Assembly: GCA_963827275.1 (NCBI GenBank)
Contig: CAWHAA010000001.1
Coordinates: 32,001 to 96,000 of the forward strand
DNA length: 64,000 bases
Direction of reading: 5' to 3'
DNA from: an uncultured Spirochaetota bacterium
GTDB taxonomy: Bacteria; Spirochaetota; UBA4802; UBA5550
Below the pieces are notes generated by a model that made no database searches, was not told where the DNA came from, and worked only from the letters and a program-made list of their open reading frames with translations. The position numbers and the translations under genes are program-made. Below are positions 11,447 through 63,084 of the stretch, in pieces (within the stretch, counting starts at the first letter, position 1; each line of letters begins with the position of its first letter).

Positions 11447-11588
11447 TACTCTGACCCCGCATTGCACCGATAGTTATCGGTAGCCCGGTTACTCTGACCC
11501 CGTATTGCACCGATAGTTATCGGTAGCTCGGTTACTCTGACCCCATATTGCACCGATAGTTATCGGTAGCCCGGTTTACTCTGACCCC
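11447..11588 (+). repeat. 43-bp tandem repeat array A (3 units plus a terminal motif), REP-like
   Basis: TACTCTGACCCC starts at 11447, 11490, 11533 and 11577; unit TTACTCTGACCC-CGCATTGCA-CCGATAGTTATCGGTA-GCCCGG with an internal palindrome. Confidence 0.95.
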
Positions 11589-11599
11589 GGGTTGACCTC

Positions 11600-47627: not shown

Positions 47628-48875
47628 ATGAAAAAATTCACCTACCCGCTTCTCGCGCTGGCCATCGCGGGCGCAATCATTTCAGGGATGCTGCTCCTGC
47701 AGCATTATTATCCCGATGCGAAAATCGGACTGATTACCTGCGGCGACGGGATATTCAACCCCTGCCTCTCGCTCGCCCAATCAGGCTATGCAACGCTCTT
47801 CAACATGCCGATTGCCGCCTACGGCCTCCTCTGGTACCTGCTCGCACTGTTCATCCTGCTGATCGCCGATTACGCCGGCGGACGGTACCATGCCTATTCA
47901 CTCGCGCTGATCCTTCCCCTGTCGGCCGCGGGCGTCGCCGCCGACATCGCCCTTGGAATAATCCTGATCAAGCTGAAGATACTGTGTACTTTCTGCGTGG
48001 CCACCTACGTGATAAACCTTGCTATCCTGGCCCTGTCGTTACTATGGTTTCGATCGGCAAAACAAAGCGACGGCTTTTCACTCCCGGGGGCTCTGCGCGA
48101 GCTGACGGCGGCTGATTCAACCCCCGACCGCAAGGCATTCCATTCCGCTTTCATCCTGTTCTTTTTTCTCCTCGTATTTTCGGTATTTGCGACATCACTC
48201 ATATTGAAGGTCAAGACCGCGACAGCGAAAATCCCCGAAAACAAGGCGACCGCGTTTCTCCAGAATTTTTATCGCGCTCCCGCGCAAAATATCACGTTCC
48301 CCGACAGCGGCATCACCCTGGGAAATCCGAGGGCAGAGGTGACCATTGTCGCCTTTACCGATTTCCTTTGCAGCGCCTGCTACCAGCTGTACCGGCAGGA
48401 ATCAATGATCTTTTCGAAATACAGGGACCGGGTAAAAATAGTCTATTATAACTATCCTCTTGACAGGAGCTGCAACCAGGAGCTGAAGAGGACCGTGTAT
48501 AATAATTCCTGCATCGCCTCGCGCGCATTCCTGGCGGCGTCAGACCGCGGCATGGTAGAGGAATATATACTCAAGCATTTCGCAGACTATGAGAACACAC
48601 ATTCCCGCTATTCCATGGAGCTGGCGCTCCGGGCATTCACCCATATTGATGAGGGAAAACGCGGGGGAATGACCGCCGGGCAATTCCAGAGCCTCATGAC
48701 ATCTCCCGCGATAGCTGCGAGGCTCGACGAGCATGTACGGCTTGCCAAACAGCTCAAGGTTGACGCCACGCCGACGCTCTACATCGGCGGCAGGAGGCTG
48801 GTCGGCGTACCGCCAATGGAAATACTTGACCAGATACTGCAAAACGAGCTGGCCGGCAGGAAGTCGTCACATTAA
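47628..48875 (+). CDS. VKOR-family membrane domain fused to a DsbA/thioredoxin domain
   Basis: C...C loop and CTFC in the TM domain; FTDFLCSAC and DATPTLYI in the C-terminal domain. Confidence 0.88.
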   Translation: MKKFTYPLLALAIAGAIISGMLLLQHYYPDAKIGLITCGDGIFNPCLSLAQSGYATLFNMPIAAYGLLWYLLALFILLIADYAGGRYHAYSLALILPLSAAGVAADIALGIILIKLKILCTFCVATYVINLAILALSLLWFRSAKQSDGFSLPGALRELTAADSTPDRKAFHSAFILFFFLLVFSVFATSLILKVKTATAKIPENKATAFLQNFYRAPAQNITFPDSGITLGNPRAEVTIVAFTDFLCSACYQLYRQESMIFSKYRDRVKIVYYNYPLDRSCNQELKRTVYNNSCIASRAFLAASDRGMVEEYILKHFADYENTHSRYSMELALRAFTHIDEGKRGGMTAGQFQSLMTSPAIAARLDEHVRLAKQLKVDATPTLYIGGRRLVGVPPMEILDQILQNELAGRKSSH

Positions 48876-50906
48876 TTCGTACGGGTCGATATCGATTTCA
48901 AGATATACGTCACGTCCGGTAACGGCGTTCCTTGAAGCGGTGATTGCGTCACGAAGGGCTTGTATGTTGCCTGATTTCAGGATTATATGGTGACGCCAGT
49001 TGCCCCCGATCTTGCTGAAGGGGGCGGCTGACGGGCCGAGTATTATGATATCCTTGCTCTGACCCCTGATATCCTTACTCTGACCCCTGATATCCTTACT
49101 CTGACCCCTGATGTTGCTCTTACCACTGGTATCCTTGCTCTGACCCCGCATATTCTCCTCAAGGGCCAGTTTCAGGTCATTTATACAAGCAATCACCCGT
49201 TCTTCATTCTCTCCCCTGACCAAAAGACGCGCGATCCGGGTAAAGGGGGGATATTGGAGCATCCTCCTCGCTTCCAGTTCAGACCGGTAAAAACCATAGT
49301 AATCCTGATTCCTTATAAAACGAAACAGGGGATTTTCATTATCAAGGGTTTGTATAACCACTTTCCCAGGTGAATCCCCACGGCCAGAGCGACCCGCCAC
49401 CTGAACGAGTAATGCAAATATTCTCTCTGTGGAGCGAAAATCCGGCATATTCATGCCTATATCAGCCAGGAGGACCCCAACAAGGGTGATATTTTTGAAG
49501 TCAAATCCCTTGGCAACAAGCTGGGTGCCTACCAGTATATCGACCTCTCCCCTGTTCATCTTCCCGATCAACTCCGGCACCGTATCCTTATGCCTGGAAC
49601 TATCCTGGTCGAGGCGGAAAATCCTGAAATCGGGAAATTCCTCCACTACGATATCCTCGATCCGTTGCGTCCCCGAACCGACTTTATCTATTTGCTCTGA
49701 CCCGCATCGAGCACATGAGGTCGGAACCGCATCCTGATGCCCGCAATAGTGACAGAGCATATTGCGGTCCCGGTGATAATTCATGCCGATATTACAGTGG
49801 GGGCACTCAACAGTCCATCCACACTGACTGCAAATGACGATAGGCGCAAATCCACGCCGGTTAAGAAGGAATACAACCTGTTTTCCCTGGTCAACAGCCC
49901 TCTTTGTGTAAAGCTTCAAAATTGGAGAGATGAGTTTACTCGGTTTCGTGGAATTGATCTTAACGATTTCAACATCCGGAAGTGACGCGTTCCCATAGCG
50001 TGTTTTCAGAGCATGAAGTTTCATGACACCGCGCTCACATGCATAGAGCGTCTCCACCGCTGGTGTTGCTGATCCCATCACGACCAGAGCCCCTTCCGTC
50101 TTGCTACGGTATAATGCAAGACGCCGTGCATTATACCGGGGGGTGCTGTGCTCCTTGTATGATCCGTCATGCTCCTCATCAATAATGATCATTCCCAGCC
50201 TGGGGCATTGAAGAAATACCGCTGAGCGCGTACCGATTGCTATATGTGCATCCCCCTTAAAGAACCTGATCCAGTTATGAAGACGCTGGTTAGAGGTTAG
50301 ATGGCTGTGATAAATGATAAGATCGTCACCGAAAACACCATACAGCCGTTCGAAAATCATTGAAGAGAGTGATATTTCAGGGACCAGATATATCACCGAA
50401 TACCCCCTGGCAATCAGCGACTTCGCAATCTCAATATATATCTCCGTCTTTCCGCTGCCAGTTATTCCGAAAATACAATGACTTAGCTCACCTTTATGGT
50501 ATGATTCCATGATATTGAAATACACATTCCGTTGTTCATCATTTAGTTGAACGTCCCCTGTTACAGTTTTTTCAAATGGAATTTTATACCGGGCCGATGG
50601 TCTAATTCCTGATGGAAGCGCCATTGCAAGCGCTTCACCAATGGAGGAAAGATAATTATCCGCGGTGTATCGAGCAAGCGACATTAACCGATTGTCATAA
50701 ATCAGATCTGTGTCAATAACATCAAGTATCTCTTTAACTTTATAATCACCAGGCTCGTCTTCATGGGTTCTGTCAACGAAGGCAATAGTATTTCTTCCTG
50801 AAAAATTTACCTTTACTCGCATGAAAGGCGTAACATGCATTCCCGAAGGCACACGATAAGTAAAAGTTGTCGAGAGGGGATAACCGATATATACATCTGC
50901 GAACAT
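48867..50906 (-). CDS. priA: Primosomal protein N' (PriA) with an in-frame repeat insertion
   Basis: GITGSGKTE, DEEHD, GSATP, LNRRG, four CxxC pairs, QVAGRSGR, YPPF, IDIDP. Confidence 0.96.
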   Translation of the reverse strand: MFADVYIGYPLSTTFTYRVPSGMHVTPFMRVKVNFSGRNTIAFVDRTHEDEPGDYKVKEILDVIDTDLIYDNRLMSLARYTADNYLSSIGEALAMALPSGIRPSARYKIPFEKTVTGDVQLNDEQRNVYFNIMESYHKGELSHCIFGITGSGKTEIYIEIAKSLIARGYSVIYLVPEISLSSMIFERLYGVFGDDLIIYHSHLTSNQRLHNWIRFFKGDAHIAIGTRSAVFLQCPRLGMIIIDEEHDGSYKEHSTPRYNARRLALYRSKTEGALVVMGSATPAVETLYACERGVMKLHALKTRYGNASLPDVEIVKINSTKPSKLISPILKLYTKRAVDQGKQVVFLLNRRGFAPIVICSQCGWTVECPHCNIGMNYHRDRNMLCHYCGHQDAVPTSCARCGSEQIDKVGSGTQRIEDIVVEEFPDFRIFRLDQDSSRHKDTVPELIGKMNRGEVDILVGTQLVAKGFDFKNITLVGVLLADIGMNMPDFRSTERIFALLVQVAGRSGRGDSPGKVVIQTLDNENPLFRFIRNQDYYGFYRSELEARRMLQYPPFTRIARLLVRGENEERVIACINDLKLALEENMRGQSKDTSGKSNIRGQSKDIRGQSKDIRGQSKDIIILGPSAAPFSKIGGNWRHHIILKSGNIQALRDAITASRNAVTGRDVYLEIDIDPYELM
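49047..49148 (+). repeat. 21-bp tandem repeat containing TTRCTCTGACCCC, inside priA
   Basis: GATATCCTTRCTCTGACCCCT at 49047, 49068 and 49089, a degenerate 18-mer at 49110, a variant at 49128; encodes RGQSKD(I/T) on the minus strand. Confidence 0.95.
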
Positions 50907-51047: not shown

Positions 51048-51061
51048 GGTGTCAGAGTAAC
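51048..51061 (+). repeat. REP-like motif variant GGTGTCAGAGTAAC downstream of the RAYT-like gene
   Basis: One mismatch to GGGGTCAGAGTAAC. Confidence 0.7.
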
Positions 51062-51223
51062 ATTATTTTAGTACTGGAATAGCATAGTAGCAAAAATATC
51101 TAGTAATCTGGGATCTATGGACTCTAAAGATAATCAGAACTGATTTGAATTTTAAGGAGAGAAGGCTTAATATAATAAGCTAAATATTTGTACTTCTGGA
51201 ATTCCAACTGTTGCGATAACCAA

Positions 51224-51823
51224 TTACCCAAACAGGCTTTCCGGGAAGATTCGCTTTCTATACCTTTCTTCGTATTCAAGAAATTTTCCGACCCGTTCCT
51301 CGAAGGTAGCCCCCAGCTTTACAAAATATTCATGCAGGGTGATGGTTACCGGCGGAATGAATTCCTTGCTCAAATAGCAGCGGATAGACCCATACTTGTA
51401 ATCTCGGGGATCTGCGACAGTTTTGCTTTTTACCGGATTATAGGCCATATAAAGCAATATTACGAAAAACGTCGAAACCGGGTCGTCAGTAAGTTCAATA
51501 ATGGTATCGCTGAAGCGCTCATTCCAGAAGGGGCCAATCCTGCCCATGATCCGGTTATATCGCCGTGCAAATTGTGACTTGATGAACTGCATGATACGAG
51601 AAATGGACTCGCCGCCATCAAGCGTACGGATAAGAAAATGGAAATGATTGGCCATGAGGGTATAGTTGATCAGCTCAAAATGGTATTTTTCAAGCGCCAG
51701 GTCTAAGACAAAAAGCATCAAGTCTTTCATCTCATCAGAATGCATGAGGTGTTTTTTCTCGATGCAGCGTGACATGGTGTGATAGGTATGTTCCGGCAGG
51801 CAGTTCCGTTGTTTTCGCGGCAT
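51224..51823 (-). CDS. REP-associated tyrosine transposase-like HUH endonuclease (Y1_Tnp, IS200/IS605 TnpA superfamily)
   Basis: MPRK.R, YHTMSR, HUH motif MANHFH, GPFWNERF, catalytic Tyr region LYMAYNPVKS, DYKYGS; no tnpB next to it. Confidence 0.9.
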   Translation of the reverse strand: MPRKQRNCLPEHTYHTMSRCIEKKHLMHSDEMKDLMLFVLDLALEKYHFELINYTLMANHFHFLIRTLDGGESISRIMQFIKSQFARRYNRIMGRIGPFWNERFSDTIIELTDDPVSTFFVILLYMAYNPVKSKTVADPRDYKYGSIRCYLSKEFIPPVTITLHEYFVKLGATFEERVGKFLEYEERYRKRIFPESLFG

Positions 51824-51902
51824 GGCGTCCTCCTTTGCTTGTGGGATGTCTTGCTTGCGTTTGCTGTATATACGAATGGGAGGCCGCCTTCTGGTAATAA
51901 TT

Positions 51903-51964
51903 TTATGGGGTCAGAGTAAAAAATTTAAAATAAAACTATATCATCAAAAAAAGGGTCAGAGCAA
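51903..51964 (+). repeat. Two REP-like motifs upstream of the RAYT-like gene
   Basis: TTATGGGGTCAGAGTAA at 51903-51919 (identical to 62893-62909) and GGGTCAGAGCAA at 51953-51964. Confidence 0.85.
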
Positions 51965-52495: not shown

Positions 52496-53507
52496 TAATA
52501 TACTGTTTTGTTTTCTTATTTTTTTCATGCCTGTGGTATCAGCTTATGGGCAAGAAGAAGATATCAAACTCGAAAATCCGCCTCTCGAAAAAAAAATCGG
52601 GGTCTTTAATCTTGAAAATGGCTTCGAACGATATTTTTTCTATACTAGATACCAGATTGGTGGTAAAACATTGTCACGGCAGGGAGCCGGAATCACTTAT
52701 TTTCCCTTCAGCGAGCTAAAGTTTCCTCTCGATGTTTTCATGATTTACGCAAATCTTACTCTGACCCTGCTCGATAGAATTTCATTCCACTATGGAGTAA
52801 AGAAAAACATCCACAACCGGGTTGGCAAGATGAAAGATACCGACTGGATACCCCTCCCCGGATTTAAAACAATCTATTCTGAAAGCGACGCCAGGCTTAA
52901 CGCCATTATCACCGAGGCTGATTTAGTCGTTAATCTTTACACGATATCATTTTTTTCTATAAAAGTTGGGGCAGGATTCATGCACCAGTACCTCTACTAC
53001 TGGTGCAGCAACGTGGTTCAAGAAGACATCATTGACGCAAATATGAATCTTGAAATGCCGTCAATAACGGTTATCCAGGGAAAGATAATCACTTACGAAG
53101 TACAGTATTACATTTTCACGATGCAGATTACGCCTGTTTTCACCATTCCTTTAGGGAAGGGATATCTGGAGATAATCCCTGCAATTCGGTTTTCCCCTTA
53201 TCTCAGGGCAAAAGATATTGACGACCATCTCCTGAGAGGAAAAGTTGCAAAAGGCGACAGCAAAGGAACCGCCTTCATGCCTTTCCTGAGCATCAGGTAT
53301 TTATTTGCCAGCAGGGTCTTTATATCGGCAAAGCTCGAATACATGTACCTGGTAACGAAGGGAAAACAGACGCAATCATATTACAACCCATTTATTGAAC
53401 CAGACGTCACCAACAATATTCCGGGATGGTCGGCACGCATTGAAAATAAACTTAAAAGCGAACAGCTATCGGTCAGTCTTGGGGCAGGCTATTCATTCGA
53501 ATTTTGA
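52449..53507 (+). CDS. Omptin-like outer-membrane protease
   Basis: SELKFP, GKMKDTDW and DIDDHLLR resemble omptin catalytic motifs; C-terminal GAGYSFEF; start uncertain. Confidence 0.65.
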   Translation: MVVLLNQFYRKKSKNNNILFCFLIFFMPVVSAYGQEEDIKLENPPLEKKIGVFNLENGFERYFFYTRYQIGGKTLSRQGAGITYFPFSELKFPLDVFMIYANLTLTLLDRISFHYGVKKNIHNRVGKMKDTDWIPLPGFKTIYSESDARLNAIITEADLVVNLYTISFFSIKVGAGFMHQYLYYWCSNVVQEDIIDANMNLEMPSITVIQGKIITYEVQYYIFTMQITPVFTIPLGKGYLEIIPAIRFSPYLRAKDIDDHLLRGKVAKGDSKGTAFMPFLSIRYLFASRVFISAKLEYMYLVTKGKQTQSYYNPFIEPDVTNNIPGWSARIENKLKSEQLSVSLGAGYSFEF

Positions 53508-62896: not shown

Positions 62897-63084
62897 GGGG
62901 TCAGAGTAACCCACTTACCGATAACTATCGGCCCCACAGTGGGTCAGAGTAACCCGCTTACCGATAACTATCGGCCCCACAGTGGGTCAGAGCAACCCGC
63001 TTACCGATAACTATCGGCCCCACAGGGGGTCAGAGCAACCCGCTTACCGATAACTATCGGCCCTCACAGGGGGGTCAGAGCAAC
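62897..63084 (-). repeat. 43-bp tandem repeat array B (4 units plus a terminal motif), same family as array A, opposite orientation
   Basis: GGGTCAGAG at 62898, 62941, 62984, 63027 and 63072; unit GGGTCAGAGYAA-CCCGCT-TACCGATAACTATCGG-CCCCACAGT. Confidence 0.95.

Follow-up and report, generated by a model that had tools for sequence, protein, structure and literature searches.

The gene for the replication-restart helicase PriA in an uncultured Spirochaetota bacterium carries a run of short tandem repeats that preserves its reading frame, and a gene for an HUH transposase lies close by. The question raised by this locus is how the repeats arose within priA and whether the transposase had a part in their origin. 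Positions are those of the window, which is the whole 64,000-nucleotide stretch of DNA that was analyzed; the genome from which it derives is termed G000. The repeats are built on a 13-base sequence with the core CTCTGACCCC, here called the word.

Structure and ancestry of the priA array

The features of priA were located as follows.

48867..50906, minus strand: priA, encoding a replication-restart helicase of 679 aa
49046..49147, minus strand: five-unit in-frame array, PriA residues 587-620, net gain of 27 aa
49135..49147, plus strand: word (13-mer) of the first unit in reading order, colinear with the native sequence of orthologues
49114..49126, plus strand: degenerate word of the 18-bp unit (2 mismatches); GQS is retained here in homologue P0002
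49046..49087, plus strand: two 21-bp units missing from a near-identical strain (42-bp skip, run X11)
49692..49703, plus strand: second, single word copy (12 of 13 bases), colinear, in the PriA zinc-binding region (CGSEQ)

On the plus strand, the array units were found at 49046-49066, 49067-49087 and 49088-49108 (21 bp each), 49109-49126 (18 bp) and 49127-49147 (21 bp), for a total of 102 bp that leaves the reading frame intact. The encoded peptide was RGQSKDT-SGKSNI followed by three copies of RGQSKDI, after which comes ILGP at residue 622. These results confirmed the five tandem units, their lengths and their peptides as proposed by the sequence-only reading, which was off by one base in register and which had also rightly placed an HUH gene (51823-51224) near the array, at a distance of 2.1 kb. 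The 102-bp array was thus present, but its net gain over orthologues was 81 bp (27 aa) and not 102 bp, since one unit stands in for native sequence. The exact core was detected in four of the units and the 18-bp unit differed from the 13-mer by 2 mismatches; in the window as a whole, 21 matches to CTCTGACCCC were found at one mismatch or fewer compared to a shuffle mean of 3.95 and a shuffle maximum of 8. Each unit consisted of the 13-mer and 5-8 bases of priA's own flanking codons, with the spacer of the 21-bp unit provided by Asp-Ile codons native to priA, and the bases ATCA occurred directly before the word and again at the unit end, 21 bases apart. No GTAG or CGTC tag and no hairpin was detected in the units (centroid structure fully unpaired on both strands). 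A proposed identity between the continuation of one priA unit and the first unit of an array termed A was reduced to a shared GCAT, a 4-base coincidence, as Met-Arg codons set those bases in priA and relative G009 differs there.

The array was also followed in sequencing runs, of which 24 were listed and 20 had this stretch; contigs of eight runs were compared, and run X13 gave no cover. Contig pieces that require an allele of at least five units were found in six of the eight runs (X1, X4, X5, X6, X7 and X12), X1 being the possible source of the assembly and the other five coming from different studies. This evidence consisted of a contig of 46-51 bases whose sequence requires two identical units in a row following a word, the whole array being spanned by no single run contig. 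By contrast, a 687-base contig of run X11 (depth 3.3) omitted 42 bases (49045 to 49088) with 10 bases common to the joint. Collapse of a 31-mer graph would not give a 10-base joint, and the X11 contig was thus taken as a true three-unit allele of a near-identical strain. Five and three units, therefore, segregate within the species; four-unit alleles may also be mixed into the runs, as the depth of the loop contig was 0.3-0.9 of that of its flanks. The possibility that the repeat is an artefact, raised beforehand as grounds for refutation, did not hold in the run contigs, where independent runs carried the array. No match was obtained when metagenome contigs were scanned by pattern for the word as embedded in priA.

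Orthologues were compared to establish the ancestry of the array. A priA gene was found in all 41 genomes searched, with the array in two of 30 aligned loci. Among 89 database homologues (query included), three carried the array and 86 did not; 82 of the latter were parsed, the four unparsed showed no repeat, and all homologues with source names were Spirochaetota. The PP-to-GP segment spanned 43-48 aa in the 82 array-free homologues, 59 aa in P0002, 60 aa in P0003 and G009 and 73 aa here, with unit architectures (in aa) of 7-6-7 in P0002, 7-7-7 in P0003 and G009, and 7-6-7-7-7 here. The array is common to four related lineages (+13, +14, +14 and +27 aa), which formed one clade with an SH-aLRT of 100 in a quick tree of 40 rows; with one origin, it counts as a single event. 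These segment lengths indicate a net gain of 27 aa and three units ancestral to the group, and by this comparison two further units appear to have been gained in this species or to be now in the course of loss. A scan of 80 mostly distant priA loci, with one near outgroup (L092), revealed no array in the loci whose C-terminal loop was parsed, many of the 80 falling outside that set. Likewise, no array was found in orthologues from genomes without a close HUH homologue; its presence there would have spoken against the tie first proposed.

The one-unit state, E-N-I-R-G-Q-S-K-D-I-x-I, has the same length as the native orthologue segment, and L092, the outgroup whose DNA is nearest, had the word's flanks in register on both sides of a different core. 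The colinearity of this state, together with the host origin of the spacers, suggests that the word replaced native bases first and that host flank was duplicated with the word later. Thus, base changes likely created the word in priA, and tandem copies of it and of host DNA then grew from that seed. The first gain may have been one duplication of 39-42 bp or two of 21 bp, as the sequence fits either.

PriA was found as one full-length copy in the genome, with the 3' DNA-binding domain, SF2 helicase core, two-zinc region, C-terminal domain and all 8 zinc cysteines present. A structure prediction based on 80 sequences (mean pLDDT 86, pTM 0.86) was used, as a model based on 11 sequences was poor (pTM 0.52). 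Residues 594-617 were the only stretch with a pLDDT under 50 and were located between a helix (568-593) and a strand (621-633), placing the array in a loop of this domain, the C-terminal one, that is predicted to be disordered. The predicted fold matched 8FAK with a TM-score of 0.83 and, like PriA of E. coli (8FAK, 6DCR) and K. pneumoniae (4NL4), included the 3' binding domain, helicase lobes, zinc region and C-terminal domain. By contrast to E. coli PriA, 27 extra residues were present at the array position, which aligns with E. coli residues of about 662-669, and in this group a short linker takes the place of the E. coli winged-helix domain (by alignment to 6DCR and 8FAK), as it does in the alignment of the deletion construct. 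Protein identity of 78% was found together with near-saturated synonymous sites, a pattern consistent with a kept host frame and a protein under purifying selection; the extra peptide is likely near-neutral for PriA. The 3' end of a VKOR-DsbA fusion gene (47628-48875 of the window) overlapped that of priA by 9 bases. In G015 (and G012), the word overlapped the priA stop codon at a convergent junction with a DsbA-like gene (L009, L013, priA 3' end), and in G000 three other genes, whose peptides end in GSE, take their stop codon from the word.

The word in coding DNA and its tie to the HUH cassette

The genome was found to contain 143 exact copies of the 12-mer TRCTCTGACCCC compared to 0 of reversed controls. 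A slightly wider pattern matched 194 copies in 4.13 Mb, with none on 4 of 11 contigs; the density of the word was about 0.05 per kb. Gene calls were rough (priA was split), and coding copies were thus re-listed from open frames and Pfam.

Coding copies were compared among relatives for base changes and length. Between the priA genes of G000 and G009, 75 of 231 four-fold sites were identical; both outer array words were perfect in the two genomes and the spacers differed entirely. At the zinc-region copy, the Gly-Ser-Glu codons of the word were used in 7 of 8 subclade genomes, compared to other codons in 10 of 10 further loci, and the single mismatch of this copy was forced by a zinc cysteine codon. 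In hrpB, one word copy was kept in 8 of 14 genus genomes, among which 8 of 150 four-fold sites and none of 29 Gly codons were invariant. These comparisons show that the word is kept as DNA, codon for codon, at synonymous sites otherwise near saturation. Some copies do decay, with single mismatches in close relatives. Eight of 16 candidate word-bearing genes were searched in relatives (an acyl-CoA ligase had no orthologue at threshold in 5 genomes). When 10 single internal coding copies were compared to orthologues (hrpB, two copies; Rrf2; MptE-like; sulfatase; glycosyltransferase, two copies; omptin-like; ilvD; radical SAM), nine were length-neutral and one was one codon shorter. One ilvD site carried the word in opposite orientations in G000 and G016, and the omptin-like copy lies within the window.

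52757..52768, plus strand: single colinear word copy in the omptin-like gene, also in G009, absent in 4 other relatives

Codon-aware enrichment of the word's translations was modest and uneven, as judged from rough gene calls: counts were above expectation for GSE (12 vs 3.7), GQS (5 vs 1.8) and SDP (9 vs 3.4) and below it for LTP (22 vs 36.9). Special targeting of repair genes was considered and rejected: coding copies were not confined to priA, hrpB and an AlkZ-related gene but occurred in many metabolic genes as well, and priA of the word-rich genomes G020, G022 and G023 was without the array. Nearness to HUH genes was thus preferred. As a separate observation, three word sites were seen in hrpB (L172, G000:C5:226833-229343) across the genus, and 8 species keep one of them. 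In G001, G004 and G016, hrpB and an HUH gene are separated by about 40 kb.

The HUH gene near priA was found to be part of a cassette with the following features.

51049..51941, minus strand: HUH cassette; a second copy, on contig C4, matches it at 99.3% identity over 894 bp
51224..51823, minus strand: HUH/Y1 tyrosine transposase, 199 aa (PF01797; NHFH at 59-62, YMAYNP at 125-130)
51048..51060, minus strand: downstream cassette word, a CACC variant; same variant at the empty site in G010 and G011
51907..51919, minus strand: upstream cassette word, same orientation as the downstream word

Identity between the two 0.9-kb cassette copies started and stopped at direct copies of the word, and the cassette has been copied recently. 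The 199-aa protein had both the HuH motif NH[YF]H and the class 2 Y---NP motif and scored 73 bits against NF047646, below the cut-off of 80; at E 0.001, PF01797 was the only domain found in it, and no C-terminal helix-turn-helix was detected. The word core fits GGGGWSAS, the motif of TIRYT-type HUH transposases. The flanking words were direct and not inverted at four close HUH copies in G000 and at most genus homologues, and a distant HUH copy on contig C10 had inverted flanking words. Behind another copy (copy C, G000:C5:600112-601699) was a small cysteine-rich gene, a possible passenger, with further direct words on either side of it. In G010 and G011 a single word was found at an empty site, and in G001 and G009 an HUH gene was found at that site. 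This comparison of empty and filled sites suggests that the word likely serves as the crossover site for the cassette.

The tie between word and enzyme was also apparent across genomes. Nine of 41 genomes had no HUH match better than 1e-25, and all nine had 0 word copies; all 32 genomes with such a match had at least one copy, and 28 had at least four, kin among these not being independent. With the flanks of the HUH genes themselves excluded, word clusters were found 50 kb or less from such a gene in 25 of 87 cases in G000 compared to 11.6% of the genome, in 18 of 77 in G016 compared to 8.5% (16 matches beyond the 100 listed being counted as outside 50 kb), and in 5 of 15 in G013 compared to 2.3%. 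Closeness to an HUH gene is nonetheless not a sufficient cause, since in G001 an HUH gene occupies the same place next to priA, which lacks the array. Array edges displayed a weak asymmetry (9 vs 4 of 40 clusters, P 0.049, the clusters not being independent), and no nick site was mapped from them.

The word was nearly absent near the replication origin and terminus and was concentrated mid-arm on both replichores. In G000, 0 copies were on contigs C2 (dnaA) and C6 (skew switch). Among 100 listed of the 116 matches in G016, four were within 0.83-2.15 Mb of contig C2 (dnaA at 1.42 Mb), three of these being the flanks of an HUH gene, and none were within 3.53-4.24 Mb; the word was likewise scarce around dnaA in G008 (C7, 0-1.09 Mb). 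No strand bias by replichore was seen. Local spread together with origin-symmetric inversions could explain this scarcity, as could a chromosome-domain role.

Other arrays and the origin of the priA repeats

The sequence-only reading held that units in coding DNA are tolerated only as multiples of 3, and set 21 bp in coding against 43 bp in intergenic DNA. Neither generalization stood. The linker of an Fe-S protein had in-frame arrays with steps of 19, 19; 39, 19, 20; 42, 62, 20; and 54, 105, 22 bp, with 106 bp also seen, and all three frames of the word are read in these arrays; the frame constrains the net length only. Intergenic steps of the word alone were also 19-22 bp, and the 43-bp unit consisted of the word and a second, palindromic module. 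Short word steps had their floor and mode at 19-22 bp, within which 21 is the sole value that keeps the frame in one step. The Fe-S linker was 15-27 aa in nine genomes without the word and 31-76 aa in seven with it (16 of 17 parsed), and array expansion appears to need a permissive place in the protein. Helical phasing of word spacings was examined and rejected, as 22 pairs in G000 gave a P of about 0.004 against a crude uniform null and 30 pairs at relatives' loci gave 0.2-0.5.

Several further repeats were observed. The word was present in 19 of 64 tandem arrays of the genome. Arrays of 43-bp units (word and 16-base palindrome) were at 11447-11589 and 62897-63084 of the window, and palindrome-only arrays elsewhere in the genome had periods of 20-22 bp. 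In the Fe-S protein with the expanded linker, a 4Fe-4S protein (L171, G000:C4:635962-637692; L202-L217), the palindromic module was read as TDNYR/SDSYR. Two 22-bp tandem arrays with a GGGGTCACGTG core (G000:C4:639567-640425) contain a possible word variant, and a further family had a CCCCCTGTCCCCC core in 39-79-bp tandem units.

G000:C10:207337, 256429, 471188 and 471451; C4:178726; C5:807196: CCCCCTGTCCCCC repeat family

We consider it probable that the priA array is the two-step footprint of the local TIRYT-type HUH transposase, in which a length-neutral word was followed by tandem duplication in a predicted surface loop. In the first step, the 13-base word would replace native priA codons with the length unchanged; the HUH protein may cause such substitutions if it binds or nicks near-matches in the vicinity of its gene, with biased conversion or drive as the result. 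In the second, the word would seed tandem duplications of itself and priA flanking bases in the tolerant loop, either from nicks or by word-to-word slippage, aided by the ATCA microhomology. Against this footprint, the same microhomology permits plain slippage, G001 is without an array, repair would normally lose nick sites rather than gain them, opposite to the direction of the proposed drive, and the cassette appears to integrate at resident words, so that clustering near HUH genes could run the other way. A wider form is possible but doubtful, namely that HUH acts in cis in a molecular drive like that of uptake sequences: near-matches around its gene would become the word up to the limit set by protein function (even at the PriA zinc site), be held against synonymous drift over long periods and seed loop expansion, sparing origin and terminus.

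It is unlikely that the word is instead a host-selected site (for chromosome organisation, protein loading or DNA uptake) at which the HUH cassette only attaches, with the priA array formed by ordinary slippage. Long-term keeping at synonymous and orthologous intergenic positions would agree with such a site, and scarcity around origin and terminus keeps it alive. However, these transposases are flanked across phyla by a motif that the word matches; the word went undetected in the nine genomes without a close HUH homologue, has no strand bias by replichore and varies from 1 to 143 copies, those of G013 clustering around one HUH gene.

Insertion of a REP- or MITE-like mobile repeat into priA as a foreign unit, kept as a multiple of 3, is quite improbable. 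The word does bound a recently moved cassette, the Fe-S linker arrays contain a foreign palindromic module, and intragenic REP clusters are known (PMC3733652), but for priA this route is largely refuted: the units consist of the word and priA codons only, with no hairpin, the one-unit state adds no length, and nine of 10 single coding copies add none. Thus, of the original claim that a repeat element adds peptide to PriA, the part that stands is that an HUH-associated word lengthens PriA in frame; the part that falls is the insertion of a foreign element. Selection of the RGQSKDI repeat for a changed PriA function, in DNA or partner binding by the C-terminal domain, is highly improbable. This domain is described as binding DNA and contributing to the SSB site (PMC5778457), and RGQSK is kept in four lineages, but the length varies (+13, +14, +27 aa) and is polymorphic within the species, it is the DNA word that is kept with other frames giving other peptides, and the segment is predicted to be disordered. 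An assembly artefact or chance resemblance is refuted, for although short tandem repeats assemble poorly and no run contig spans all five units, independent runs and three other lineages carry the array, and chance is at odds with the word count against reversed controls.

Comparison with known systems

Literature searches (on TIRYT, and on the word with transposase terms, covering few subscription papers) returned only PMC3733652 and PMC6006769 as relevant and no biochemistry on a TIRYT/TnpA-Y1 enzyme binding or cleaving its flanking repeat. The word, its near-matches and the empty and filled cassette sites offer concrete substrates for the first TIRYT biochemistry. In addition, a single essential gene lets the sequence of steps be followed, from a length-neutral word through long synonymous keeping and duplication with host flanks to copy-number variation in living strains; this would be one way for a mobile enzyme to alter host proteins with no DNA inserted.

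The GGGGWSAS motif flanks TIRYT genes (Di Nocera et al. 2013, PMC3733652; PMC6006769), and TIRYT has been equated with TnpA-Y1 subclass 2.1 (Quentin et al. 2018, PMC6006769). The present system is similar to TIRYT/TIRtron in its HUH/Y1 enzyme with NHFH and Y---NP, in a flanking word that fits this motif, and in a moderately abundant repeat family with dimers and clusters. By contrast, TIRYT/TIRtron flanking repeats are terminal and inverted whereas the cassette here is bounded by direct copies, and subclass 2.1 has a C-terminal HTH that was not found in the HUH protein here. Also unlike TIRYT/TIRtron, the cassette moved recently and the word occurs alone in coding DNA by substitution; intragenic TIR words are not described in the parts of PMC3733652 covered here.

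Rickettsia RPE and REP/BIME are both intragenic repeat elements. The present array resembles both in that in-frame repeat clusters lie in working proteins, and the word at the priA stop in G012 and G015 has a counterpart in the intragenic REP/BIME ends that supply stop codons (PMC3733652). Such clusters are described as adding 20-82 aa in frame to working proteins, often of replication and repair, so that in-frame repeat clusters in repair genes are already published for REPs (PMC3733652); priA was not found in four supplementary files of that paper, of which Figure 7B and other files could still list it. However, REP and RPE are tagged hairpins inserted as foreign units, and REP repeats in repair genes were taken as insertions, whereas the repeats in priA have no palindrome, derive from the host except for 13 bases and began with a substitution that left the length unchanged, by which the word was apparently written into priA.

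In mode of origin, the word resembles the DNA uptake sequences USS/DUS, which are reported to arise by mutation, not insertion, in poorly constrained protein parts (Findlay and Redfield 2009, PMC2817400). Like these, the word is short and non-palindromic, appears substitution-born at permissive coding sites and shapes residues (PMC2817400). By contrast, USS/DUS are evenly spread at 0.8-0.9 per kb (PMC2817400), about twenty times the density here, and the word is patchy. USS/DUS are tied to the uptake machinery; the word is tied to a transposase and, in addition, seeds tandem duplications.
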